DNA of 64,000 bases from Escherichia phage DT571/2, in sequence record NC_047749.1. The stretch is one strand, 5' to 3'. The notes beneath the pieces are model-generated. The model worked only from the letters and a program-made list of their open reading frames with translations, was not told the origin of the DNA and searched no databases. Positions within the stretch are counted from its first letter, which is position 1. The number at the start of each line of letters is the position of its first letter. Made by a program: the position numbers and the translations under genes. Below are positions 103 through 59,968 of the stretch, piece after piece.

Positions 103-420
103 TTACTCCTGCCAATCGTATTCAATACGATTGGGGTTTTCTTTGTATCCCAAGTCAAGCAAATCATTACGCATAGTTTGCTTAGCTACGGGATTCGAGG
201 TTACTAGTACCACTTTCTTTGGTCTCTGCCCAAATTCTAAGAGTAAACGAAGAATTTGATAACCTTCCATACCATCTACAGCCAAATCGTTGTCGAAATA
301 AACAAAATGGCCAGTGGTATCAGTCTTATTCAGAAACTCAACAGCGGCTTCTGGGGTTCGAATGATAATGTCCATTCCGTGAAGATTACGCACATCATCA
401 ATCAAAATATGAAAAGTCAT
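103..420 (-). CDS. Stand-alone CheY-like receiver (REC) domain protein (105 aa)
   Basis: Motif order ILIDD ... TPEAAVEFL ... VYFDNDLAVDGMEGYQILRLL ... VVLVTSN ... K matches REC acidic pocket, phospho-acceptor Asp, conserved T/S and Lys; own sigma70-like promoter upstream. Confidence 0.55.
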   Translation of the reverse strand: MTFHILIDDVRNLHGMDIIIRTPEAAVEFLNKTDTTGHFVYFDNDLAVDGMEGYQILRLLLEFGQRPKKVVLVTSNPVAKQTMRNDLLDLGYKENPNRIEYDWQE

Positions 421-4399: not shown

Positions 4400-5239
4400 T
4401 TAAGAGGACATTTTAGCTTTAAGAGCTGGATGAGGATCGTACCCCTCTAAGTGGAATGACCAGGCTGCTGTATTATTTTCTAATAAGTCGTAAAGATCTA
4501 CAAATTCTGGCATTACTAGAGTTGGTAAAGAACGAGGTTTACGTTTTACCTGTTCTTCTACCTGTTCCATGTGGTCATTATAGATATGAGTATCACCGCC
4601 ACTAAAGATAAGATAACGAGGTTTTAATCCTGTCAGTTTTGCTAATATATGCGTTAATAAAGCATAACTAGCGATATTGAAAGGTAAACCGAGGAAACAA
4701 TCCACAGAGCGTTGTGTCCATTTAAGATCTAAGTACCCATCATTACTTACATAGCACTGGAAGCCGTAGTGACAGGGTGGTAATGCCATTTTATCAAGTT
4801 CAGCTACGTTCCATGCAGAAACTAGATGTCTGCGGCCATGTGGATTATTCTTGAGTCCTTCAATAAGTTCTAGAATCTGATCTCGCCCACCAAAGTTACG
4901 CCACTGTTTACCATATACTGGTCCTAGATTACCATTATCATATCCCATACTTATAGCTTGGTCTTCATAATTTGGAGTCCAGATGGTCCACTGTCCTTCG
5001 TCACGACCAAATGTGAATACACGTAGATCATGAAGATTTGTGGAACCAGACAAGAACCATAAAAGTTCTCCAACTACCGATTTCCAAGCTAGACGTTTAG
5101 TAGTTACAGCCGGGAACCCGTCACGTAGATCGAACTTAGCATAGGAATCAAAAATTGAAACTGTGCCTGTTCCTGTACGGTCATTACGGGGTTCACCTAG
5201 TAAAATTACATCTGTCAAAATTTTTAAGTATTGTTGCAT
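4400..5239 (-). CDS. thyA: Thymidylate synthase
   Basis: Active-site LPPCH motif, 279 aa typical length. Confidence 0.95.
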   Translation of the reverse strand: MQQYLKILTDVILLGEPRNDRTGTGTVSIFDSYAKFDLRDGFPAVTTKRLAWKSVVGELLWFLSGSTNLHDLRVFTFGRDEGQWTIWTPNYEDQAISMGYDNGNLGPVYGKQWRNFGGRDQILELIEGLKNNPHGRRHLVSAWNVAELDKMALPPCHYGFQCYVSNDGYLDLKWTQRSVDCFLGLPFNIASYALLTHILAKLTGLKPRYLIFSGGDTHIYNDHMEQVEEQVKRKPRSLPTLVMPEFVDLYDLLENNTAAWSFHLEGYDPHPALKAKMSS

Positions 5240-11370: not shown

Positions 11371-13197
11371 ATGACAGAGAATGAATTAATTGAGAATTGC
11401 AAAGGTCTGCTCACTCTAACTGCGGATAAAGACTTACAACATAATAATGCTAATAAGCCTAGTGAGATGTTCCATACTCAAAGAGACTTATTGGCCGGAG
11501 AAATCAACAAGTATCTAGTATCGCAGGAATTACCCAAACATCTATTAGACGCCCATAATCTAGGTAAGATACACATTCATGATATGGATTACAGAGCACA
11601 GGGGTACACTAACTGTTGCTTAGTAGACCTTGGTGGCATGCTGAAGAATGGTACTAAAATTGGTAATGCAAATATTGAAACTCCTAAATCCATAACTACT
11701 GCATGTGCAATCACTGCTCAGATTATTGCACAAGTATCTGGTGCTCAGTATGGTGGCACCTCTATTGATCGTATCGACGAGGTTCTAGCCCCGTATGTCA
11801 GAAAGTCTTACAATAAACATCTGGGTCGTGGTCTACGTTGGCTCAAGGATGAAAGAAAAGCTGCCGTGTACGCTACTGAGCTTACTGAAAAAGAGTGTTA
11901 TGATGCATTCCAAGCCCTAGAGTATGAAACTAATTCATTATTTAACTCTAACGGACAGACTCCTTTTGTTACGCTTGGCTTTGGGCTAGGACAGGGGTGG
12001 GAGGAAAGGATGATTCAGAAAGCCATCCTCCAAAATCGTATTAAAGGTTTAGGTGCTGCTGAGTCAACCCCTATCTTCCCTAAACTAGTATTCTCAGTTA
12101 AAGAAGGATTAAATAAAAATCCAGGCGATCCTAACTACGATATAAAACAGCTAGCACTTGAGTGTTCTGCTACCCGTATGTACCCGGACTATTTAAGTTA
12201 CGAGAAAGTTGTAGCTGTTACTGGTGATTTTAAAGCTCCTATGGGTTGTCGTAGTTTTTTATCTGCTATCCCCTCTGGAGAAATTGCAGGGCGTAATAAT
12301 TTAGGTGTAGTGTCTATCAATCTACCTATGGTTGCTGCTGAGGCAGATGGAGTTTTTGAAGATTTCTGGGATATTCTAGACAAATATGTGGATGAGGCTT
12401 TTGAAGCACATGACTTCTTCTTAAACAGACTGAAGAAAGTTAAGGCTAAACAAGCCCCTATTCTTTATATGCACGGTGGTTTTGGTGTACGTTTAGATGG
12501 GGAAGAGTATGTATGGCCTATTTTTGAAGGTAGATCCTCTGTATCTCTTGGGTATATTGGGGTCTATGAGATGTGTCAAATAATGTTTAGTTTACCACAG
12601 ACTCATAGGGACTGTATTGAATTTACAGAGGAGGTTCTCACTCACCTAAAAAATCGTTGCGAAGTTAAAGCTAATGAGACTAATCTTGGGTTTAGCTTGT
12701 ATGCAACTCCTAGTGAGTCTCTATGTAATCGCTTTAATAAACTACTGGAACGTAGGTTCCCTGAGTATTCTTGGCTAACAGATAAAGGTTATCTCACTAA
12801 TAGTCATCATTTGGACGTAAGGGAGAAGGTAGCTCCAGATACTAAATTTGAGTATGAAGCTCATTTCACCAAAATAGCTAATGGTGGTAATATATCATTT
12901 GTGGAACTACCACAAATGAAAAAGTTCCATAAAGCTCTTGAATACGTAGTAGATAAGGGACTAGAATGTAGCCATTATATTGGTGTTAATATACCGATTG
13001 ATGAGTGCTTCAACTGTGGGTATATGGGTGAATCTGTTGCCTCTGAACGTGGGTTTGTATGTCCGAGTTGTGGATCTGAAGAAATAGAGGTTACACGTAG
13101 GGTTTGCGGGTACCTGGGGTCCCCGGGCAGTAGGCCTTTCAATTCTGGGAAACAAAAAGAAGTGCTTGGTAGAGTAAAACACTTAAATCTTAAGTAA
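11371..13197 (+). CDS. nrdD: Anaerobic ribonucleoside-triphosphate reductase (class III)
   Basis: C-terminal glycyl-radical motif RVCGYLG, Cys-rich Zn site CPSCG; 608 aa. Confidence 0.93.
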   Translation: MTENELIENCKGLLTLTADKDLQHNNANKPSEMFHTQRDLLAGEINKYLVSQELPKHLLDAHNLGKIHIHDMDYRAQGYTNCCLVDLGGMLKNGTKIGNANIETPKSITTACAITAQIIAQVSGAQYGGTSIDRIDEVLAPYVRKSYNKHLGRGLRWLKDERKAAVYATELTEKECYDAFQALEYETNSLFNSNGQTPFVTLGFGLGQGWEERMIQKAILQNRIKGLGAAESTPIFPKLVFSVKEGLNKNPGDPNYDIKQLALECSATRMYPDYLSYEKVVAVTGDFKAPMGCRSFLSAIPSGEIAGRNNLGVVSINLPMVAAEADGVFEDFWDILDKYVDEAFEAHDFFLNRLKKVKAKQAPILYMHGGFGVRLDGEEYVWPIFEGRSSVSLGYIGVYEMCQIMFSLPQTHRDCIEFTEEVLTHLKNRCEVKANETNLGFSLYATPSESLCNRFNKLLERRFPEYSWLTDKGYLTNSHHLDVREKVAPDTKFEYEAHFTKIANGGNISFVELPQMKKFHKALEYVVDKGLECSHYIGVNIPIDECFNCGYMGESVASERGFVCPSCGSEEIEVTRRVCGYLGSPGSRPFNSGKQKEVLGRVKHLNLK

Positions 13198-13204
13198 GCT
13201 AATC

Positions 13205-13240
13205 AGCCAGGTTGCTAGTCGACCTGGCTTTTATTTTATT
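13205..13240 (+). terminator. Intrinsic terminator after nrdD
   Basis: AGCCAGGT-loop-ACCTGGCT followed by TTTTATTTTATT. Confidence 0.75.
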
Positions 13241-13268
13241 TGCTTTCAGCCAAAAATTTATATATAAT
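13240..13268 (+). promoter_or_regulatory. Sigma70-type promoter TTGCTT-17-TATAAT for Sir2-like operon
   Basis: Hexamers/spacing; conserved downstream AAATTTGAGAGGAG element. Confidence 0.65.
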
Positions 13269-13296
13269 AGATTTGTAAATTTGAGAGGAGAAAGCT

Positions 13297-13509
13297 ATGA
13301 GGATTCATAAGGTAGATAAAGATCGTATCTATTTTGTTATGGACTCCGGAGCATATGGATCTATTCTAAGAGAAGATGTTACTAAATTTTGCTTAATAAA
13401 TACTTGGATGGATAAGGAGAAGATTGACCCTAGATCAGGCATATGCTTATCGGAACCAGCTCTTTTAATTGCAAATGCAGAAATTGAATTGTTTGAGGAC
13501 ATAGAATGA
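13297..13509 (+). CDS. Hypothetical protein (70 aa), first gene of Sir2-like operon
   Basis: GAGAGGAGAAAG RBS; promoter 13240-13268. Confidence 0.5.
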   Translation: MRIHKVDKDRIYFVMDSGAYGSILREDVTKFCLINTWMDKEKIDPRSGICLSEPALLIANAEIELFEDIE

Positions 13510-13736
13510 AAAACGTAAAACACCTTAAATATCGCTTAATTTATAACGGACGTATGGAAACAGAAGAGCTAGCTCAATTAGCTATTAACTCTAATGAGGT
13601 TATGGTGCGTGCGCTAGCAATTGAAAAGTTGCGTGCTTCTTATGAAAGCCGTATTATGCGGCTGGAGGAAACCCTTTATGGACTTCTTGAATCAGAAGCT
13701 AGAAGCAACCCAGAGGACAGGCCTACTAAGCAATAG
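13506..13736 (+). CDS. Hypothetical protein (76 aa)
   Basis: ATGA start/stop overlap with upstream ORF (translational coupling). Confidence 0.5.
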   Translation: MKNVKHLKYRLIYNGRMETEELAQLAINSNEVMVRALAIEKLRASYESRIMRLEETLYGLLESEARSNPEDRPTKQ

Positions 13737-13789
13737 AAGGTATGTATATAGGGAGTAATTTTACCTCAAAACATTATCGAAGGATTTAA

Positions 13790-14629
13790 GTGAGGAATTG
13801 TACAGTGCGTAGATTAATTATTATTAGCGGTGCAGGTTTGAGTGTTGAAAGTGGTGTACGAGCCTTCCGTACTGATACTGCTAGTGGTAAAGCATTGTGG
13901 GATGATTATGATCTAGAAGAAGTATGTAATATTCATGCCTTTCGGGGTAATTTTTACCATAAAACCCACACGTTTTACAACAAACGTCGTGAAGAGTTAG
14001 AAACTGTTGAACCCAATCTTGCACACTTGCGTATTGGTGAATGGTATAAGAAATACCCAGGTCAAGTAGTAAACTTGACTACTAACGTTGATGATCTTAT
14101 TGAGCGTGCTGGCGTTCCACATAGTGACATTCTGCACATTCATGGATACTTAAAGGAGGTTGTTGTAGCTGATAGCTACAACAGTAGTAATAAACGAATT
14201 ATTGATGTTGGGTATAACTCTATTGACCCAGATGATTATAAATGGGTTAAACCTAATGTAGTCTTCTTTGGTGAGCATGCTCCAGCGTACGCAGAAATGT
14301 ATAATATTTTTGATGGTATTACCAGTCAAGATATGATCATTATGGTTGGTTGCTCTAACCAAGTAATTAACTTCTACTGGGAATTATTCCCTGTTCTTAA
14401 TCTGACTGCTGCAAAACTTATGGTGGTTAACTACTACGATAGTGCTCTAGCGGTGGGACCAGGCTATCAAGGTATGACTCGTAGTGAGATGTACCAACTG
14501 GAAGAACGGGGTATTCCTTACTGGGGTAAAGGTGCGGTAGATGCTTTCAGTGACCCTGATTTTATTGCTCGTGTGGAAGCCCATCTAGAGGGTAGACCTT
14601 ATATGCCGGGAAAACAGATATGTCCATAG
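13790..14629 (+). CDS. Sir2-family (sirtuin-like) NAD-dependent protein
   Basis: GAGLSVESGVRAFR (NAD-binding), TTNVDDL, catalytic HG in HIHGYL, VVFFGE; no Zn Cys4 module seen; GTG start (alternative GTG at ~13805). Confidence 0.8.
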   Translation: MRNCTVRRLIIISGAGLSVESGVRAFRTDTASGKALWDDYDLEEVCNIHAFRGNFYHKTHTFYNKRREELETVEPNLAHLRIGEWYKKYPGQVVNLTTNVDDLIERAGVPHSDILHIHGYLKEVVVADSYNSSNKRIIDVGYNSIDPDDYKWVKPNVVFFGEHAPAYAEMYNIFDGITSQDMIIMVGCSNQVINFYWELFPVLNLTAAKLMVVNYYDSALAVGPGYQGMTRSEMYQLEERGIPYWGKGAVDAFSDPDFIARVEAHLEGRPYMPGKQICP

Positions 14630-14802
14630 TTAAATCTGTGTATACACATCCCGATGATATATTTGTATGGGCGGATGGTAGTTGGTGTTATCGATGTGAG
14701 TTATGGGAAATGGACTATAAATCCGATGACTATGGTGTCATATATGTTGATACGGTTGAGTATGATATGTTCTTAGAAAGGAACAAAAATGGAAATAAGT
14801 AA
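14620..14802 (+). CDS. Small hypothetical protein (60 aa)
   Basis: Overlaps end of Sir2-like gene and start of HAD-like gene. Confidence 0.4.
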   Translation: MSIVKSVYTHPDDIFVWADGSWCYRCELWEMDYKSDDYGVIYVDTVEYDMFLERNKNGNK

Positions 14803-15295
14803 TACTCCAATTATTTTTCTAGACATTGATGGGGTGCTCAACTCGAGCATCTCCCATCACCATGCACCTGATGATGAAAAGATTTTCTTTGGAAGTGACT
14901 GGGTTTTTAAACCGCTTCTCAAGGCTTTTCAGGACTTTATTCGTCCTTCTCCAATAATGATTGTTGGGGTATCTTCATGGTTCTCTGTCAGGAATGAGGT
15001 GGAGAACGTTCAGATTATGACCAGATTAGATCTTATCGATCGTTTTCTTGGTATAACGGATTTTACTGGTGGTGGGCTATCTAGGGGTAATTCTGTTCTT
15101 CGCTTCGTCGAAAAGCATAAGCTCAAACATTGGTGTGTGCTGGATGATGCTGGTGCTATGATGTATCAGTATCCAACAGTTATAGTCAACGGTAGAACTG
15201 GAATAAATCTTCAAGACTTAAGAGCTGTTAGCTATATGTTAGAATTTAGTCCAGATCTTGAAATGTGTAAAGCCCTACAACAATTTAAGGTGTAA
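14789..15295 (+). CDS. HAD-superfamily phosphatase-like protein
   Basis: Motif I FLDIDGVLN (DxDG), motif IV VLDDAG; AGGAAC RBS. Confidence 0.65.
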   Translation: MEISNTPIIFLDIDGVLNSSISHHHAPDDEKIFFGSDWVFKPLLKAFQDFIRPSPIMIVGVSSWFSVRNEVENVQIMTRLDLIDRFLGITDFTGGGLSRGNSVLRFVEKHKLKHWCVLDDAGAMMYQYPTVIVNGRTGINLQDLRAVSYMLEFSPDLEMCKALQQFKV

Positions 15296-15297
15296 AT

Positions 15298-15726
15298 ATG
15301 TTCAATAATGTATTCTCTAAAGAAGCTAACCCAATATTGGTTAATTTTTGGCGTACTCTTCCAGCCAACCTGTACAATGAGGCTATTAATGCTCTGAAAA
15401 TATGGTGTGAGAATAATGAAATCTCCTTTGCTTTTAAGGATGAGATTGAAGAAGCTCCCTGTATTGGTTTAATTGTGCAGGTAGAGGATGGCTTTGAAGA
15501 GATTATCGGATGGAAAGAGCTGGATGAAATGGGATTGGTTTTTGCATTAAACTATAAGCTATTTATGCCCAATAAACACCGTATTGTTGTTAATTATAAA
15601 ACCAGTGAATCTCCGGGCTTTCAAGTTAATGAACATTACGGTTGGTCTTACTCACCGGAAGAAGTAAATGATGGTATCCAAAGACTTCGTCGTTTTGGTT
15701 ATCAAATTCCGGGTTTAACCGCCTAA
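15298..15726 (+). CDS. Hypothetical protein, paralogue A of tandem pair
   Basis: Shares W-x-EL-x-x-MGL-x-x-ALN-x-x-LF-x-P ... PGL core with next ORF. Confidence 0.7.
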   Translation: MFNNVFSKEANPILVNFWRTLPANLYNEAINALKIWCENNEISFAFKDEIEEAPCIGLIVQVEDGFEEIIGWKELDEMGLVFALNYKLFMPNKHRIVVNYKTSESPGFQVNEHYGWSYSPEEVNDGIQRLRRFGYQIPGLTA

Positions 15727-15735
15727 GGGGACACA

Positions 15736-16128
15736 ATGGAACAAGTATATTGGCGTCAGATTGATCCTAGTTTGGTGAAGAGTGCGGAGAAGCTGCTACA
15801 ACGTTGGTTGGGGGTAAGACAAGCCTCCTTCACTTTTCCGGAGCAGCAAATAGACGATCCCTGTGTTGGTGTTTTCCTATCAGGCTACGCTAGGGAAGTG
15901 GAATTGGATTGGAATGAATTGTCTGCTATGGGTTTAATTGTTGCACTAAATTTCTCTTTGTTCCATCCACGTGGGTTGGCAATATGTCGTGTGCCTGATG
16001 ACGGTTGTTCGCCCCATCTTTTACAGGTGGAAGATGATATTTGGGAGTACCCTCCAGATATTCTCAAAGAAGCTAAAGAACAATTAAATCGTGTTGGGAT
16101 TTATGTTCCAGGCCTGAATGATGAATGA
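15736..16128 (+). CDS. Hypothetical protein, paralogue B of tandem pair
   Basis: Homologous to 15298-15726 product; AAGGGGA RBS; followed by terminator. Confidence 0.7.
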   Translation: MEQVYWRQIDPSLVKSAEKLLQRWLGVRQASFTFPEQQIDDPCVGVFLSGYAREVELDWNELSAMGLIVALNFSLFHPRGLAICRVPDDGCSPHLLQVEDDIWEYPPDILKEAKEQLNRVGIYVPGLNDE

Positions 16129-16151
16129 TTTTTATTAGCTGAACTCTGATT

Positions 16152-16176
16152 ACCGAGTCATTTTGGCTCGGTTTTC
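16152..16176 (+). terminator. Intrinsic terminator after Sir2-like operon
   Basis: ACCGAG-loop-CTCGGT followed by TTTTCTCT. Confidence 0.55.
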
Positions 16177-16219
16177 TCTATGCTCAAAGACACTGGTAGC
16201 AGCCCCTGGAAAAATTTAC

Positions 16220-16248
16220 TTGCTTGATGCTCAAAATCTTGATATAAT
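16220..16248 (+). promoter_or_regulatory. Sigma70-type promoter TTGCTT-17-TATAAT preceding ~600-nt non-coding region
   Basis: Hexamers/spacing, AAAAATTT A-tract. Confidence 0.65.
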
Positions 16249-16842
16249 ATTTATATTGAATTGAGAGACATTAGTAAAAATTGATTTTGCTAATTTTTCT
16301 TAGTGAAGCTGACAAGGGATTTACGGCGAGAGGAATCGATGACCCGTAAATAGCTGCATAAGGTACGTTGCTAGAGCTTTACGAAAAAGTTTTTTCTTGT
16401 TTACAATCCGCGATACGGAACAGTTAGGCTGCCCCATTAAGGGTTGTTTTAACTATTACTAGTGTTTATATTGCATTAGTTAACCTTCAATTAAGTGATC
16501 TGTGTACCCTGAATTCGGAAAGGTAAATCCAAACCGTGCATATTTAGCTCGTTATATAGGCAGAGCTTTATATGGGGGTGCGAACGAAAAGAGCAGCGAA
16601 TGGCGGCACGTACAGTAGTCACCTACCAATAGGATAGTGAGGACAAGTAGAATCGGCTTAGCGGCCAATGACCTAGGTTCTATTCTGTATAAGAGCGAAG
16701 AGAGCACAGCACTGAGATATGATAACTTATTCATATTGTTTGATGATAATTGATGTTTACGTAAATAGTAGTAATAGTTGTTCTATTCTTTCTGAATAGT
16801 CCTAAAGAAAAGATTTCGATTAACCAACACAGGAGTATTATT

Positions 16843-19632
16843 GTGTTTTCTATCCTCCAAGGTCACGCCGGGTTTTCTCGTGATTTAGCAACAGGTATTT
16901 GGCGAGAAATCAAAGCGGGAGATTATACCTTTGCCAAGCGATTCTCGAAAGAGCATCCAGAAGGTAAACCAGCTTCTATGCCCTTCAAATTTGATGTAAT
17001 AGAAGAGCACGACCCACAAAGCCTTGCAGAAATGTTACCACTTATGAGACGTTTAACGTCTGACCCTCATATCGTTGCGGTACGAGGTCGATGTCTTGCA
17101 CCTAAAAATAATGTGCGACGTAAGAAAGATAACTTTAATGTATCTAATCCTAGTAATATTATTGCTATGGACGTGGATGGTATCCTAGATACCGGTGGGT
17201 ACGACAAATTTAATCTTGTTGGTATGGCCCGCCACATTATTAAGATGTTGAATAGTATTAGTGAGGATATGTTTCCTCTTGATGCAGGCTTTATAGCTCA
17301 TGCATCATCTTCGGCTGGGCTAAAACCAGGTATCCGAATGCACTTAATACTAGAATCTAACGTCAAGGTAACTCAGGGTCAGCTAAAGTTCTTATTTACA
17401 TCTATCAATGATAGTAGTAAGCAAAAATTTGGTTTTGATATTGCCGACCTAGCTTATTACTCATCTGTCCAGCTCCACTATTTTGCCGACCCCTTATTTA
17501 GCGATGGTATTGTTGATCCGTTTAAAGCGGAGAGTAAGCCACGTCTGGTGTATGTTAAAGGCTCAAAAGTAAACTTACCTAATAATCTAGTTGACTATGA
17601 AACAACTAGAGGAGAGTTTAAAGAGGAATTCTACTCTTTACTCGATCAAATTAAAGGCAAAAAGATTGCTTCTGATAAAGTAGAAGAAACCATCAGCGAG
17701 TTAGAAGAGGCTGATGATGGAGTGTACTTGCGTATTATCCCCAAACTATACCATAGAGCATTAGAGGATGGTGTTGATTTTGAATGGCTAGAACGTGAGA
17801 TTAAACCAGCTTTATCTGAATATATTGCAACTAAAGATAACAGTCGTAATATTCAAGATTACTTTAATAACGGTCGCAAGCAGGCTCTCAAAGCGTTTGT
17901 TAATAATTCTAAACGTGAGATTCCACCAAATCTGAAAGGTGTTCCACTTAAGAAATTAGAAGTGGATTCTCCACCAGAAGTTCCGTACCTGAAGATTAAC
18001 ATTGTGCCCCCAAAAGGTCATATAACATTTGTTAAGGCAAGTCTTGGTACGGGTAAAACTACGGCAGTAACTAAATGGCTGGACGCAGGTGTTCTTCCGG
18101 GCAACTTTTTAGCAGTTACAAATACTAGAGCACTGGTATCTTCAAATGCCAAGAAATTTAGTGCAGGACAATACGATAAGTCTGTAGATATGCTCAACTT
18201 TAAACGTGGGGCTATTGATCGTATGTCCACAACTATTCACTCTTTGCATAAGTTCAAAAGTTTTATTGGGCAAATAGACACCATTTTTATTGATGAATGT
18301 GACGCTGTAATGAATGACCTATTATTCGCCCCTGTTGTTAAACAACGTCGCGAGTGTATTCAAGTTCTACGTGACATCCTCATGACAGCTAAGACTGTAA
18401 TCTTATCCGATGGTGATATTAGTGCGGAAACAATTGAAGCATATGGTTCTTTGATTGAGTTCGATAAACCAGTTGCATTTTACAATCACCACCGTAAAAT
18501 GTTATCAAAGGCTCATGCTTATGAATTCCCTGATGAATCCAGTATTTGGGTTGCACTTCAGACTTCTCTAGAGATGGGTGAGAAATCTATTCTAGTATCT
18601 GATTGTGGTCCTGATGAGCTGAATGAGAAGGGTATGGCACTACGTCGTAATACTGGTGCATTAGTTAAAGAAATCCATTCAAACTCCACTTCAGATGTGG
18701 ATATTCGACGTATTCTGGATTATACAACTAATGAGCTAATTGATCAACAAATTGATTGCTTATTATGTAGTCCATCCGTAACGAGTGGAGTTGACTTTAA
18801 CTATTTTGATAACGTATTTGTTATTACTAGAACCAGTAATCAGGCGCCAAACATGCGTTTTCAAGCAATCAGGCGCGACCGTGGTGCTCAGAATATCTAT
18901 TATTTTATTGATAAATCCACTAGTGGATTCTCTGCGGGTTCTGAACAATATAATATCGATGAAGGTTGGCTGGAGTTAGCACAGCAATTATATGCACGTC
19001 GCAGGGAGCTGGAGTCTAGGAACTATACTAGTACTTTACGTTATTACTTGCTTGATCAGGGTGCAACTATTGATATTTTCAGTGAAAGCTGGGGAACTAT
19101 TGAAGGTGCTGGTAAAGAATACACAGAAGAGCGAATCAAAGCTATTCTACATTCAACTCCTGATTATTGTGCTCCACGTCATGCGGATGCGTATGAGGCT
19201 AAACTACTTATTGTTCGCTATTATCATCTTGAGTCTATTAAAGATGTAACAGTTGAGCATGTTGAACAATATATCAAAGATAAGCCGAATGATCGAGCTG
19301 CATTCTTCCATAAGATGCACGAGATGTTCTGGGAAGATATTAAGAAGTGTTCAAATGTGACCATTAAACCATTCATAGAAGCTCTGAAAGGTAAGAAGAA
19401 AGATTTCTTCCTTAAAACAGGTCAGAGTGCTAACCCAAAATATGCTAGAATGTATCTTGGTATGATGGGTATTGGTAAAGATATGAACACGGAGAATATC
19501 GTAGACTGGTATAGAACCTACTGCAAAATCGAATGTATGCCAATCCCTCTCAAATTCATGACTGAAGAAGAGAAGGCTATGGCAGAAGAAGCAATGTCAG
19601 AACTAGGTGCTAGAAATGACAGTGAAGAATAA
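16843..19632 (+). CDS. Large ATPase/helicase-like protein (929 aa; Walker A GTGKTT, Walker B IFIDECD); possible replication initiation/origin-binding helicase
   Basis: GTG start with AGGAG RBS; P-loop and DExD motifs in central region; ~390-aa N-terminal domain of unknown function. Confidence 0.85.
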   Translation: MFSILQGHAGFSRDLATGIWREIKAGDYTFAKRFSKEHPEGKPASMPFKFDVIEEHDPQSLAEMLPLMRRLTSDPHIVAVRGRCLAPKNNVRRKKDNFNVSNPSNIIAMDVDGILDTGGYDKFNLVGMARHIIKMLNSISEDMFPLDAGFIAHASSSAGLKPGIRMHLILESNVKVTQGQLKFLFTSINDSSKQKFGFDIADLAYYSSVQLHYFADPLFSDGIVDPFKAESKPRLVYVKGSKVNLPNNLVDYETTRGEFKEEFYSLLDQIKGKKIASDKVEETISELEEADDGVYLRIIPKLYHRALEDGVDFEWLEREIKPALSEYIATKDNSRNIQDYFNNGRKQALKAFVNNSKREIPPNLKGVPLKKLEVDSPPEVPYLKINIVPPKGHITFVKASLGTGKTTAVTKWLDAGVLPGNFLAVTNTRALVSSNAKKFSAGQYDKSVDMLNFKRGAIDRMSTTIHSLHKFKSFIGQIDTIFIDECDAVMNDLLFAPVVKQRRECIQVLRDILMTAKTVILSDGDISAETIEAYGSLIEFDKPVAFYNHHRKMLSKAHAYEFPDESSIWVALQTSLEMGEKSILVSDCGPDELNEKGMALRRNTGALVKEIHSNSTSDVDIRRILDYTTNELIDQQIDCLLCSPSVTSGVDFNYFDNVFVITRTSNQAPNMRFQAIRRDRGAQNIYYFIDKSTSGFSAGSEQYNIDEGWLELAQQLYARRRELESRNYTSTLRYYLLDQGATIDIFSESWGTIEGAGKEYTEERIKAILHSTPDYCAPRHADAYEAKLLIVRYYHLESIKDVTVEHVEQYIKDKPNDRAAFFHKMHEMFWEDIKKCSNVTIKPFIEALKGKKKDFFLKTGQSANPKYARMYLGMMGIGKDMNTENIVDWYRTYCKIECMPIPLKFMTEEEKAMAEEAMSELGARNDSEE

Positions 19633-55326: not shown

Positions 55327-56733
55327 TTATTCACCAGCACTAACTGTGATAGTTTTAGTACCTTCTACACCAGAACCGTCTTTAGCTACAGCCTTCACAA
55401 TAACTTCGCCCGTTTTAGAAACATCAGCAGTTAATAGTCCAGATTCGGCATCAATCGTAGCGGCATCACCACTAGAAATAGACCAAGTCACAGCCGTATT
55501 AGTAGCTTCTGGAGGGGTTACCTCAACAGACATCTGCAAAGTATCACTATTTGTTACAGAAGTAGCATCAGCAGCAGATTTAACTGTGATTGATTCGACC
55601 AGTATTGGTGGAGTTTCAGCACCATCCCCCGTAGCAATCAGATTAGCCACAGTAGTTTTTGTATACTTGTTAGAAAATCCAAGATAACCTTCGTCACCAG
55701 TATCCAAATCTGTAGGAATAGCCTTAAACTCTACTGAAGTACCAAGTACATCATCAGTCTCAATAGTAGGAATGTTAACGTGCGCCTGTTTAGCAACTAA
55801 CACAGCTGCCGGACGTTCATCATCATATTCACCACCAAGGATAAGTGCAATCTCAAAACGGTTAACTACCTTAAGGGTTCTGACAAGATCTTTGTACAGT
55901 TCCATGGAACCAAGAGACTTATCATTAAGGTATGCTGTCAAAGAACCCGTTAACTCAAACGCACCCGTAAATGAGCCGATTGGAATATTTACACGTGACA
56001 TAATATTCGGGGTTAGGTACGTGATGTTGTTATTAATGGTAAAAGTACCACCAGTAATAGGAATATCATATTCCTTATCAGAATCCATATCCTTAATTTT
56101 TAGGATAGTTAACTTGTTCTTAATGTAAGAACTCTGAATAGTCATATAGGTTTCATCATCAATACCTAGTGCATCTGGATCAAATGGTTGCTCATCCAGT
56201 GGGATTAGCTGATTACCATTACCAGACCAAGTTACACGACCAATATCTTCAATATCAACGTTAACTTCTGCCTGGTTGATCTGGCAAGAGTCGATGTAAC
56301 TCCACGCATTGTCAGTTAGAATGTAAATATGCAGCATAGCCAGTTCGTGATATGCGTTATCTTTGAAGTTAACCATGAAGTTAGTAGCATTATTATGTGC
56401 TCCAGTATCTCCATCAAGGTCAATAGCTTTACCACTAGAAAGTGCATGCCATAACATATAGTCAGGAACAATTTGTTTGCCAGTAGTTGTATCCTCGTAT
56501 GGTAGGATATAGGTGGAAAAGCTCCACTCAGCCGCGTTCAAGGAATCGTTAAAACGTTTAGAACCACGAGTAGGACGCGGACCAGCTTCGTTAACAGTAA
56601 TATCTGTTGAGTTACTGTCCTGACCCCAAGAAATATCATCCTGAACTAGAATCTCTTGCGTGTTGGTCGTATCGTGACCAGTCTTAACCGTAGACACGAA
56701 GATTCGAGTATTACGTAATAGTTGTAAAGACAT
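55327..56733 (-). CDS. Tail tube protein (T5 pb6-like) with C-terminal Ig-like domain
   Basis: 468 aa (T5 pb6 ~464 aa); C-terminal Ig-like beta-rich segment. Confidence 0.85.
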   Translation of the reverse strand: MSLQLLRNTRIFVSTVKTGHDTTNTQEILVQDDISWGQDSNSTDITVNEAGPRPTRGSKRFNDSLNAAEWSFSTYILPYEDTTTGKQIVPDYMLWHALSSGKAIDLDGDTGAHNNATNFMVNFKDNAYHELAMLHIYILTDNAWSYIDSCQINQAEVNVDIEDIGRVTWSGNGNQLIPLDEQPFDPDALGIDDETYMTIQSSYIKNKLTILKIKDMDSDKEYDIPITGGTFTINNNITYLTPNIMSRVNIPIGSFTGAFELTGSLTAYLNDKSLGSMELYKDLVRTLKVVNRFEIALILGGEYDDERPAAVLVAKQAHVNIPTIETDDVLGTSVEFKAIPTDLDTGDEGYLGFSNKYTKTTVANLIATGDGAETPPILVESITVKSAADATSVTNSDTLQMSVEVTPPEATNTAVTWSISSGDAATIDAESGLLTADVSKTGEVIVKAVAKDGSGVEGTKTITVSAGE

Positions 56734-56759
56734 TTAATTATTTTCTCCTAATCTGTAAC

Positions 56760-57245
56760 TTATCTGCGAAGTGACCTACGTGGAGGCTGATACCTCACTG
56801 TTACATTTATTTCTGCTAAACCATATGGGGCCAGTAGACCCTCATCTGTACTAACTGATGTAATGCTCATATCAGTCGCCTCACATGGGAAGGTCGATCC
56901 ATTAGGTTTACTAACAGTATATTCTAAATTTCCACCTGTGTCAATAACGGTTTTTATATCCGCTACGAGTTTTTCAAGCTGCTCTTGAATGTCTGTTTTC
57001 TCTTTATCATAGACCAGAATTGGAAGTTCTAAAAACATCCACTGTTGACCTGAAGGAAGATACTGCCCAGTTTCAGTTCCGATATGAACTGCAACATAAG
57101 GAAACTCTCGTATCTCCTCAAACTTATAAGTTTGACGTGAGACGTTTCCATACAAGTTATTAAAATATTCATCTGGTTGAGAGCCATCCATTTGTTGGGC
57201 TATTCGGTCAACCAGAGCTTGCGCTATACTTGTTCTGTGATCCAT
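56760..57245 (-). CDS. Tail terminator protein (T5 p142-like)
   Basis: 161 aa, same size as T5 p142, directly upstream of tail tube gene. Confidence 0.6.
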   Translation of the reverse strand: MDHRTSIAQALVDRIAQQMDGSQPDEYFNNLYGNVSRQTYKFEEIREFPYVAVHIGTETGQYLPSGQQWMFLELPILVYDKEKTDIQEQLEKLVADIKTVIDTGGNLEYTVSKPNGSTFPCEATDMSITSVSTDEGLLAPYGLAEINVTVRYQPPRRSLRR

Positions 57246-57248
57246 TTA

Positions 57249-58016
57249 TTAGGTCCCTTGATTAACCTTAATTTTGTATCTGGAGTGAATTAAGTCTCTT
57301 GCAGCTTTAGCTATCGCCTCTCCAATTAGTCTTTGAGGGTTTCTAGCACCTGGGTAGGGTCGTAATGACAATCTTCGATATGTAGATACAGCAGGATTAA
57401 ATACTGAATATGGACGTACCATATAATTATATGTAACATTTAATTCAGGAGCACCTTTGCTAGTTCCAGCATCTCTAAGCATAACATCTTTAACTTTTAG
57501 AGAATTTGCAAAACGACCTGTTCTAAATTTAAGTGGAGCTCCTGCTTTTTTCATATCCTTTATTAAGTATTCTTTGGCAACCAACTCCAGAATAACCTTC
57601 ATATTACTATTTGATACAAAACGACCAGAAGCCCCTGATACTGCACCTGAGTATCCATCCTCAACATCACTAGGATCACCAAAGTTTACCTGCACTCTAC
57701 CAGTAGAGCGTTTTTTACCTACAGAAGATTTCTTGCCTGCGGTTGATTGAATAAGGCTTTCTAAAGCCCCTAGATCTCCTGTCAGGTCTAAGCTAGAAGA
57801 AACTGCTTTTAGAATAGAGGCTGTCCTAACACTAAGGAGATCCTGTGATACCGGTTTTGAGAATTTAAAAGATACTTGAGCAACAGTACCATCTCTAGTA
57901 GGATCCTTTAATCCTGTTTCAACAGAATATACAACAGTATTCTTATTGTTCTCGGAACGCCCAACATTATCTAGCTGCTCTTTAATAATTCGTGTAGCTA
58001 AATCAGAAAGAGACAT
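57249..58016 (-). CDS. Tail completion / head-tail joining protein (T5 p143-like)
   Basis: 255 aa; position between head and tail modules. Confidence 0.55.
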   Translation of the reverse strand: MSLSDLATRIIKEQLDNVGRSENNKNTVVYSVETGLKDPTRDGTVAQVSFKFSKPVSQDLLSVRTASILKAVSSSLDLTGDLGALESLIQSTAGKKSSVGKKRSTGRVQVNFGDPSDVEDGYSGAVSGASGRFVSNSNMKVILELVAKEYLIKDMKKAGAPLKFRTGRFANSLKVKDVMLRDAGTSKGAPELNVTYNYMVRPYSVFNPAVSTYRRLSLRPYPGARNPQRLIGEAIAKAARDLIHSRYKIKVNQGT

Positions 58017-58528
58017 TATACTCTCCTGTAAACTTCAATAATAGTACGAATATGCTCTGGAATACCAGACTTAGTATTATTAAAAGTAACTGTTTCTCCG
58101 CCAATTGTTTTAGCTTGACGGTAATCCTGTTTATGCCAGTGATCTACTAACATACATGCTGCAAGTTTGAGATCTTCAGGAATTGGGTTAAATCCACCTT
58201 GTGTGTACTCTACATCCATATAACCTTCTGGGGGACTAAATTTAAGAAGTATAACCCCATCAGAGTATAACTTATACTGTTCGGGATCTATCTCCTTATC
58301 ATTAATAGTCATTTTAGTTACTGAAGTAGCTGAGGGAGAACTTAAAAAGTATTTTTTACGAGTAGGTTTTGTATTGATTAACTGGTCTACCGCATCAGCA
58401 TCATCCATACCTAAAAGGCTAGTAATCAGCGCATTGGCAGCAGTAATCATCATCTCTACTCCAGATTCTAGTTCAGGTCGTTTTAAACCACCGTATAATC
58501 TATAGTCTTCAGCTGTGATGATTTGCAT
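58016..58528 (-). CDS. Head completion/adaptor protein (T5 p144-like)
   Basis: 170 aa; immediately downstream of major capsid gene. Confidence 0.55.
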   Translation of the reverse strand: MQIITAEDYRLYGGLKRPELESGVEMMITAANALITSLLGMDDADAVDQLINTKPTRKKYFLSSPSATSVTKMTINDKEIDPEQYKLYSDGVILLKFSPPEGYMDVEYTQGGFNPIPEDLKLAACMLVDHWHKQDYRQAKTIGGETVTFNNTKSGIPEHIRTIIEVYRRV

Positions 58529-58591
58529 TTATTTTTCCTAATAATAAAAAAAGGAGAGCCGAAGCTCTCCTTATCGGCTGAAAAGCCTGTA

Positions 58592-59968
58592 TTAAGATGC
58601 AGCGTAAGCACCGGATACAACGCCGTTCTCGAAGTAACGTTGCAGGTTAACACGCTGAGTAACGTAGTATGCGTCACGCTGTTTGCCAGCTTGGCGCTCA
58701 CGTTCAACAGTAACAGCACGCTGACGTGGCATCACGAAGTTATCTTTATAAACAATAACTGCGAACTCTTTACCAGCTGCTTTAGCTGGGAAGTACTCAG
58801 AAACTACAACCGGCAGACCATAAATACGACCAACCTGACCCTGCAGTTTAACAGCATCATTACCAACCTGAGCAACATCCTGCCATTCTTCATCTTCCAG
58901 CAGATCGTAGTAAGCATCCATAGATACAATCAGTACCAGTTTGGACAGTTTCAGACCATGACGGCCCAGCTTACGACGCAGTTTAGAGATAGTTTTAGCA
59001 GTTACCAGAACAGAACCATCAGCTTTAGCTTCGGTAGTAACTTTAGCACTATCTTCACTAGCAAGAGTCAGCAGACCTTTCGGCTTACCAGAACCATCAC
59101 CAGTCATGAAGGCTTCTTCAATAGAAACAGCGTGTGCTTCAATTAGACGCTTACGAAGCAGTGGCAGCAGGGAGAAGATTGCATCTTCTTCAGTTTCATC
59201 AGTAATGAAGGATTTAGCAGCCAGTTTGTAAGTACTGAAGTGGATTTCTGTAAGAGCGCCTGTAACTTCGCTACCAGTAGTATTGTCACTACCATAAGCA
59301 GAAGCAGCAACCCAAGTAGCTCTACCAGCATCCGGTTCAACCAACATAGTAAGAATCTTACTGGACATCGGCAGTTCTTCGAACAGTGCGCCAACTACTA
59401 GCTCTTTCTGCAGGTCACGGATAATACGCTGAGAGAAAATAGTTTCATAGCTTTCACTAGAAACTTCTACAGAAGAGGACTGATTCACTGCTTTCAGGTG
59501 TTTTTGACCGTGTTCGGTTTCGAATACGCCTTTTTCCATTACATAGGACAACAGAACCAGTTTTTCTACTTCGTCTTCAAAGGTTTCCTGAGTACCGTAC
59601 AGTGCTTTAGCAACACTATCACCAACGAAGGAACGACCTTCACGAGCTGTTAGCAGAGACTTAATTTCGTCCTGAAGACCAACAATAGTTTCCTGTTGTT
59701 TTTCTACAGTTTGTGCAAACAGTTCTGCACTCTTCTTAGATTTCTCATCCAGAGACTTAACCAGTTCCAGAGCTTGTTCCAGTTTCTGACGATCTTCGCC
59801 AACTGCTTTAGAAACCAGGGCATTCATACGAGCCAGTTCTTTTTCTTCCTGCTCTTTACGCATACGTTCAGCTTCCTGAGCTTTCTGAGCAGCGGTCAGA
59901 CCTTCCAGAGATTTAGCCAGATCACCCAGACCAAGTTCTTCTTTCAGCTTATTAATATCAATAGTCAT
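58592..59968 (-). CDS. Major capsid protein precursor (T5 pb8-like; HK97 fold with N-terminal scaffolding delta domain)
   Basis: 458 aa as T5 pb8; N-terminal ~150-aa coiled-coil scaffold region; highly biased codon usage. Confidence 0.9.
   Translation of the reverse strand: MTIDINKLKEELGLGDLAKSLEGLTAAQKAQEAERMRKEQEEKELARMNALVSKAVGEDRQKLEQALELVKSLDEKSKKSAELFAQTVEKQQETIVGLQDEIKSLLTAREGRSFVGDSVAKALYGTQETFEDEVEKLVLLSYVMEKGVFETEHGQKHLKAVNQSSSVEVSSESYETIFSQRIIRDLQKELVVGALFEELPMSSKILTMLVEPDAGRATWVAASAYGSDNTTGSEVTGALTEIHFSTYKLAAKSFITDETEEDAIFSLLPLLRKRLIEAHAVSIEEAFMTGDGSGKPKGLLTLASEDSAKVTTEAKADGSVLVTAKTISKLRRKLGRHGLKLSKLVLIVSMDAYYDLLEDEEWQDVAQVGNDAVKLQGQVGRIYGLPVVVSEYFPAKAAGKEFAVIVYKDNFVMPRQRAVTVERERQAGKQRDAYYVTQRVNLQRYFENGVVSGAYAAS

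Follow-up and report, generated by a model that had tools for sequence, protein, structure and literature searches.

The cluster considered here lies in a 64,000-nucleotide (nt) stretch of the genome of Escherichia phage DT571/2 (record NC_047749.1), referred to below as the window. It comprises seven genes, which encode a sirtuin, a HAD-type phosphatase, a pair of DUF7415 paralogs, and three small proteins (Table 1). The seven genes form one early transcription unit, equivalent to T5.100-T5.107 of phage T5, and the phage is T5-like. In a megablast search, positions 13200-16200 matched 446 phage records, among them T5 at 93.5% identity and T5-like phages of Escherichia and Salmonella at 90-96%. 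The T5 counterpart (55786-58927 in record AY543070) has an annotated promoter and terminator on either side and sits directly after nrdD, ahead of the gene for the replication-origin-binding protein. The window has nrdD (11371-13197) in front of the cluster and, behind it, the gene for a 929-amino acid (aa) helicase-like protein that begins at 16843. DNA identity with T5 is about 93% over the whole cluster, and promoter, terminator, and gene order are shared. The two differ in the small genes: the first gene encodes a 70-aa protein in the window and the unrelated 126-aa T5.100 (phrog_11748) in T5, and the 60-aa gene is present once in the window and twice in T5 (T5.103 and T5.104).

Table 1. 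Features of the sirtuin operon and of related elements in the window.
Feature	Position	Strand	Basis and remarks
Rho-independent terminator of upstream nrdD	13205-13229	+	10-pair stem and T-run; annotated in T5 as nrdD terminator; invariant in relatives
Sigma-70-type early promoter, TTGCTT-17-TATAAT	13240-13268	+	Direct sequence reading; T-rich tract 5' of the hexamers
Gene 1, 70-aa acidic protein, phrog_20147	13297-13509	+	Open reading frame list and PHROG match
Gene 2, 76-aa helical protein, phrog_5236, ortholog of T5.101	13506-13736	+	Open reading frame list and PHROG match
Gene 3, sirtuin, 279 aa, classical Sir2 family, class-III-like, zinc-less, ortholog of T5.102	13790-14629	+	GTG start; AAGGA ribosome-binding site
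Gene 4, 60-aa acidic protein, phrog_5116	14620-14802	+	Overlaps both the sirtuin and HAD genes
Gene 5, capless HAD phosphatase, 168 aa, HAD_SAK_2 family, ortholog of T5.105	14789-15295	+	PF18143
Gene 6, DUF7415 paralog a, 142 aa, ortholog of T5.106	15298-15726	+	PF24187, E=7e-33; phrog_2502
Gene 7, DUF7415 paralog b, 130 aa, ortholog of T5.107	15736-16128	+	PF24187
Operon-closing rho-independent terminator	16152-16176 (hairpin 16152-16172)	+	9-pair stem and TTTTCT; scan-detected
cREC (cyclic-phosphate-processing receiver) domain protein, 105 aa, ortholog of T5.084	103-420	-	PF20274

The seven consecutive open reading frames (ORFs) are spaced at -4, +53, -10, -14, +2, and +9 nt, and the ATGA overlap of the first two suggests that they are translationally coupled. 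The hexamers of the promoter are invariant in T5, ESCO30, and, at a greater distance, DaisyDussoix, and the element falls within the promoter feature of AY543070. It is not among the output of the consensus scanner, which missed it because the -35 element agrees at three of six positions. The closing terminator shows no change in T5 or DaisyDussoix, and the T5 record annotates it. An initial annotation of the window, made from the letters alone, had placed one promoter and one terminator around seven packed or overlapping genes, and the ORFs, their spacings, and the conserved hexamers and hairpin bear this out. It had also called the promoter strong. Since the scanner did not list the element, its strength is inferred and not measured. 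A second promoter-like element (TTGCTT-17-TATAAT, 16217-16250), also invariant in T5 and DaisyDussoix, lies directly 3' of the operon terminator; presumably it drives the origin-binding/helicase gene at 16843 across an untranslated stretch of about 590 nt.

The central product of the operon is the sirtuin. It matches Pfam SIR2 (PF02146) at 87.9 bits against a cut-off of 24 (E=1e-24), its residues 14-192 covering positions 1-178 of the 180 in the profile, and it belongs to phrog_2162 (E=4e-119). In the PDB, E. coli CobB (1s5p) ranks first at E=1e-17, ahead of archaeal Sir2 and human SIRT5. Sirtuins of virulent phages are spread over about a thousand phage genome records, 992 having a tblastn match. 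Ten sequences of the viral clade, from six phage groups, were aligned, and GAGxS (GAGLS in the window), the FR of the cofactor loop, FYNKRR, TTNVDDL (a TQNID-type motif with Q replaced by T), the catalytic HIHG, FFGE, and N214 are conserved across them. FYNKRR aligns with FYNARR of CobB and holds the class-III YxxR pair, of which Y63 never varies in the clade and R66 hardly ever. This pair binds acidic acyl groups in SIRT5 and CobB. The phage enzyme thus shares with CobB and SIRT5 the Rossmann NAD-binding motifs, the catalytic His, the FGE loop, and the YxxR pair, and differs from them in an extra loop near the C-terminus, in its RNA- or nucleotide-processing gene partners, and in the loss of the zinc cysteines: none of the ten sequences has a Cys in the segment aligned to that of CobB (residues ~120-160). 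Zinc loss has already been noted in related Vibrio phage sirtuins (PMC5107563). Judged from these motifs, the sirtuin is apparently catalytically intact, though zinc-less. The initial annotation had recognized the sirtuin, its NAD-binding and catalytic motifs, and the lack of an obvious Zn-Cys4 module; all three observations hold, with the SIR2 profile extending over the whole catalytic domain.

The sirtuin scores below all NCBIfam cut-offs for CobB, with 100.3 bits where the subfamily model NF001753 demands 243 and 89.3 where the equivalog model NF040867 demands 320. It also matches no defence-type SIR2 family among the 5027 PADLOC models at E<=0.01. Its relationship to Pfam SIR2 and CobB, together with the lack of a PADLOC match, argues against a defence-type NADase; by sequence, the protein is a divergent classical Sir2 member of a viral clade related to CobB and SIRT5. 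The defence-type reading was rejected for the operon as a whole, no PADLOC model being matched by any of the seven proteins. Defence SIR2 effectors (ThsA, DSR1/2, SIR2-HerA, and pAgo-associated SIR2) share the sirtuin superfamily and the use of NAD+, but they are of another family, and the window gene comes from a virulent phage and has no sensor or partner domains. The analogy to anti-phage SIR2 NADases drawn in the initial annotation is therefore not sustained, given the classical CobB/SIRT5-like family and zero matches among the PADLOC models. An NAD- or ADP-ribose-based accessory function is a reasonable reading.

The HAD gene lies 160 nt downstream of the sirtuin gene in the same operon. 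Its product matches PF18143, named 'HAD domain in Swiss Army Knife RNA repair proteins', at 73.8 bits (cut-off 27.5, E=2e-20), and the four HAD motifs (DxDGV, SS, RG, and DD) do not vary among 15 homologs with identities as low as 27%. The profile match and the motifs confirm the phosphatase assignment of the initial annotation. A sequence search of the PDB with this protein returned nothing even at E<=10. Its fold is nearest to the capless (C0) HADs, and the top structures include the protein phosphatases MDP-1, Scp1, UBLCP1, and Fcp1. Capless HADs generally act on macromolecules. Both the HAD of the Swiss Army Knife (SAK) type and the cREC domain, which is taken up below, were defined earlier (PMC7824862).

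The two proteins that follow match PF24187 (DUF7415) at 113 and 107 bits (cut-off 27), with two matched stretches in each. They share 31% identity (E=6e-20), in agreement with the homology of two ~135-aa proteins seen in the initial annotation. An exhaustive profile search found 162 relatives, mostly of 70-110 aa with only the core of about 55 residues. Ten multi-domain relatives were scanned, and a second Pfam domain was found in two, both metagenomic (P0083 and P0118): a thymidylate kinase and a dATP/dGTP pyrophosphohydrolase. Stand-alone DUF7415 genes (L004 3980-4213 and L003 3992-4249) occur directly after nrdD in the T4-like Klebsiella phage KPV15, where the gene is of the single-domain kind, and next to a Nudix gene in Klebsiella phage Roth90. 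The Roth90 homolog carries an 'anti-CBASS acb1' label, which was discarded as annotation noise, no library or fold search having backed it. In the sirtuin loci of phages rV5, KPP-1, and ESCO5, hidden Markov model searches gave no DUF7415 match within 5 kb. The DUF7415 core is a mobile phage domain with a phage-only fold that has no solved relative, and the pair in the operon may be acidic binding or adaptor proteins.

The remaining genes are small, and genes 1, 2, and 4 matched only PHROG families without an assigned function besides sub-threshold Pfam and NCBIfam noise. ESCO30 has the identical gene 1 product and Klebsiella phage IME260 one with 52% identity; the position of gene 1 is variable among T5-like phages. 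In DaisyDussoix and IME260, gene 4 homologs come immediately behind the sirtuin gene. An additional ORF of 73 aa (L002 2479-2700) separates gene 2 from the sirtuin gene in ESCO30 and is absent from the corresponding interval of the window (13736-13790). This ORF and the duplication of the 60-aa gene in T5 indicate that the small-ORF content of the operon turns over fast while the enzymes are fixed.

The initial annotation had asked for profile searches of the seven proteins and for a check of conservation across T5-like genomes. The searches, reported above, placed a Sir2 domain in the 279-aa protein, and the genome comparison found the gene set kept in T5, ESCO30, DaisyDussoix, and My1. All four have the order nrdD, small ORFs, sirtuin, 60-aa gene, HAD, DUF7415, and origin-binding protein. 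The DaisyDussoix sirtuin is 51% identical to that of the window, and Pectobacterium phage My1, of a different subfamily, has one detectable DUF7415 copy. Gene 1 is retained in Klebsiella phage IME260 (Sugarlandvirus), and so are, at L009 3789-5762, the sirtuin, the 60-aa gene, and both copies of DUF7415; the first DUF7415 copy (L009 4891-5367) and the 60-aa gene (about 4824-4955) are unannotated in its record. The initial annotation had set its proposal against an operon universally conserved with a known housekeeping role. The cluster is indeed conserved across the Demerecviridae, but no known housekeeping role goes with it. In T5, supplementary files 8 and 16 of a genome-wide dCas13d knockdown screen list T5.100-T5.105 all as 'Not Fit' (PMC11879866), their knockdown having caused no loss of fitness. 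The cluster genes are accessory and not essential, at least in the laboratory host.

One further gene of the window, far from the operon, bears on its function. The cREC protein (Table 1) matches PF20274 at 55.5 bits (cut-off 27) over profile positions 2-86 of 88; its T5 ortholog is annotated only as hypothetical. Across phage records, cREC is distributed much as the HAD gene is, with nearly equal counts. In rV5 and KPP-1, a cREC domain sits between the RNA ligase and the sirtuin. The window cREC protein is thus a candidate unlinked partner of the sirtuin operon.

The gene neighborhoods of related sirtuins vary with the phage. In rV5, the order is RNA ligase 1, cREC, sirtuin, and pyrophosphohydrolase, with a P-loop kinase and a metallophosphoesterase alongside. 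In KPP-1, a metallophosphoesterase, an RNA ligase, cREC, a P-loop kinase, and the sirtuin are found together. The T5-like system resembles the rV5/Mydovirus one (RNA ligase 1, cREC, kinase, sirtuin, and MazG) in having a sirtuin of 56-59% identity and a cREC gene in the genome. It differs in that HAD and DUF7415 take the place of ligase and kinase and that cREC lies about 13 kb off. No MazG homolog was found by tblastn in the window or in T5 1-45 kb. In the jumbo Cronobacter phage GAP32 (L015 413-5685), the sirtuin is directly followed by a 301-aa Nudix protein, with a nicotinamide phosphoribosyltransferase 2 kb upstream and, just downstream, a PhoH protein, which in T5-like phages likewise adjoins nrdD and the sirtuin operon. 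In Escherichia phage ESCO5, an 89-aa protein with an Acb2/Tad1 hairpin domain (L007 960-1229; PF24729, E=1e-17), of the anti-CBASS/anti-Thoeris sponge family, is encoded about 4 kb upstream of a phi92-like sirtuin gene on the same strand.

Much of this had been anticipated. A distinct viral sirtuin clade in three conserved neighborhoods was described by Iyer, Burroughs, Anantharaman, and Aravind (Viruses 2022, section 3.7.3; PMC9503650). There, the sirtuin with a Swiss-army-knife HAD forms the 'type 3' neighborhood of T5-like phages, with Escherichia phage SP15 as the exemplar. The SP15 sirtuin is 93% identical to that of the window, which identifies the window cluster as an SP15-type system. 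The same section proposes that viral sirtuins are KptA-like and use NAD+ to strip RNA 2'-phosphates derived from 2',3'-cyclic ends, and that the enzymes encoded next to them either open the cyclic phosphate or deal with the by-product, ADP-ribose cyclic phosphate. It shares with our analysis the sirtuin-HAD adjacency, but does not mention the DUF7415 pair, the small ORFs, or the unlinked cREC. The initial annotation had considered the coupling and function of these genes unassignable from sequence. However, T5.100-T5.107 have been annotated since 2004, and both the sirtuin-HAD coupling and an RNA-repair hypothesis appear in Iyer et al. (2022). The sequence finding is therefore already known: the genes are annotated and family-wide in T5-like phages, and the coupling and a hypothesis of mechanism are in print. 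What is added here is the cREC gene in the same genome, the lack of tblastn matches to the RNA ligases of rV5, KPP-1, and Roth90 and to the kinases of rV5 and KPP-1, the persistence of the sirtuin-DUF7415 association, and the dispensability of T5.100-T5.105 upon knockdown.

Following Iyer et al. (2022), we favor, with a probability of roughly 0.4, an accessory module for the processing of RNA ends or of ADP-ribose phosphates. The sirtuin would use NAD+ on a phosphorylated RNA end and not on acyl-lysine. By analogy with Tpt1/KptA, NAD+ would attack a phosphate oxygen, ADP-ribose would be moved to the 2'-phosphate, and nicotinamide and ADP-ribose 1''-2'' cyclic phosphate would be released. The HAD would take the terminal phosphate off RNA or off the ADP-ribose phosphate by-product, and the separately encoded cREC protein would open cyclic phosphates. 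Combined, these activities would clean up the ends of tRNAs or mRNAs cut by host metal-independent ribonucleases, whereupon a host enzyme would seal the ends, or the pathway would halt at end-healing or by-product detoxification. The proposed chemistry is like that of the Tpt1/KptA pathway, in which Tpt1 is followed by a cyclic phosphodiesterase and a phosphatase, and candidate partners for the later steps, cREC and HAD, are present. The analogy is functional only: KptA has the ADP-ribosyltransferase fold, the window protein the sirtuin Rossmann fold, and the two are not homologous.

Three things favor this RNA-processing reading: the conserved surroundings of the gene in four phage groups, the HAD's family and cap type, and the presence of the cREC protein. 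In particular, the orthologous sirtuins of other phage families lie inside RNA-repair gene sets. Dispensability of the genes in a laboratory host is as expected for a conflict or repair module. Potential nuclease substrates exist: the T5 annotation lists 25 tRNA genes, including one pseudogene. No tRNA gene lies in the window. Several observations weigh on the other side. The sirtuin keeps all the residues expected of a protein deacylase, including YxxR, its nearest relatives are protein deacylases, and we know of no sirtuin that acts on RNA phosphate. The RNA ligases of rV5, KPP-1, and Roth90 and the polynucleotide kinases of rV5 and KPP-1 have no tblastn match at E<=1 in the window or in T5 1-45 kb, a search that left out about 5 kb of unique late-region T5 sequence and ligases of the Rnl2 and RtcB types. 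The repair pathway would therefore be incomplete in the phage, and sealing would need a host enzyme. The HAD gene is absent from the IME260 operon, and the Klebsiella T5-like phages keep the sirtuin and the DUF7415 pair without it; consistent with this, just 3 Klebsiella phage records have any HAD match, as against 131 with a sirtuin match. Within the Demerecviridae, the sirtuin-DUF7415 link outlasts the sirtuin-HAD link. Conversely, the HAD homologs of T4-like Aeromonas and Morganella phages have no sirtuin gene within +/-3.5 kb. Finally, a literature search for experimental work on T5.102-T5.107 or on any phage sirtuin yields only genome papers and two surveys from the Aravind group.

The deacylase residues are the starting point of another explanation, in which the sirtuin, as a phage version of CobB, deacylates protein lysines and retunes metabolism early in infection. 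It would remove acetyl or succinyl groups from host or phage proteins such as acetyl-CoA synthetase, RNA polymerase, or enzymes of nucleotide metabolism, and the HAD would act in parallel as a phosphoprotein phosphatase. CobB and SIRT5 are the closest relatives in sequence, the catalytic His, the FGE loop, and the class-III YxxR are kept in the viral clade, protein phosphatases are among the nearest HAD structures, and the function was proposed for the Vibrio phage homologs (PMC5107563). Yet the NCBIfam cut-offs for CobB are missed by wide margins, the zinc module, seen in the characterized deacylases known to us, is gone, and the conserved neighbors in four phage groups are RNA- or nucleotide-processing genes and not protein-modification genes. 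These points make the deacylase reading, on the whole, rather unlikely. Less likely still is that the sirtuin serves takeover or counter-defence, as the initial annotation had it, being an NAD+ glycohydrolase or an ADP-ribosyltransferase acting on protein or DNA, with the HAD degrading a phosphorylated NAD-derived product. Some sirtuins do have such activity (reviewed in Iyer et al., 2022), the genes are transcribed early and dispensable in the laboratory host, and the GAP32 sirtuin is coupled with Nudix and NAD-salvage genes. However, the protein is of the classical family without a match to a defence-type SIR2 model, and the profile libraries detected no Macro, NADAR, or SLOG domain in the operon, so that a partner reversing ADP-ribosylation is missing. 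Depletion of NAD would, moreover, hurt the NAD-dependent DNA ligase of the phage itself.

The position of the cluster invites an explanation in terms of nucleotide supply. Here the DUF7415 proteins would be adaptors for enzymes of dNTP synthesis such as NrdD, and nucleotides would be the substrates of the sirtuin and HAD, for example in a CobB-like phosphoribosyl transfer or a nucleotidase reaction. The cluster is always directly 3' of nrdD in the Demerecviridae, and the single-domain DUF7415 gene of the T4-like Klebsiella phage is found at the same place; DUF7415 is fused to nucleotide enzymes in the two metagenomic proteins; and in PHROGs the sirtuin is classed with nucleotide metabolism. 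The cluster is nevertheless set apart from nrdD by a terminator and a promoter of its own, a capless HAD, as judged from the fold comparison and from what is generally known of HAD cap types, is ill suited to small substrates, and a nucleotide-enzyme domain was seen in only those two of the ten multi-domain DUF7415 proteins scanned. A role in nucleotide supply is accordingly the least probable of the explanations weighed here.

The features of the sirtuin that speak for a deacylase could also be reconciled with RNA processing, although we regard the combination as doubtful. The sirtuin would then be no deacylase but the first shown to act on a nucleic-acid phosphate end, the class-III Tyr and Arg, which normally hold succinyl carboxylates, holding the RNA 2'-phosphate. 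With the capless HAD and the cREC cyclic phosphodiesterase, it would make up a ligase-less end-healing system that protects tRNAs from host ribonuclease defences, with the DUF7415 pair, more lastingly linked to the sirtuin than the HAD is, as an unrecognized specificity or inhibitor subunit.

The remaining value of the cluster is as a tractable biochemical question. Because T5 is genetically tractable and the genes are dispensable, both the RNA-phosphate and the deacylase readings are directly testable. If the latter is true, the cluster would offer a clear example of host acylome rewriting by a phage. If the sirtuin acts on RNA phosphate, the operon would add a new substrate class for the sirtuin fold and would reveal that a classic model phage counters ribonuclease-based immunity by NAD-dependent means.

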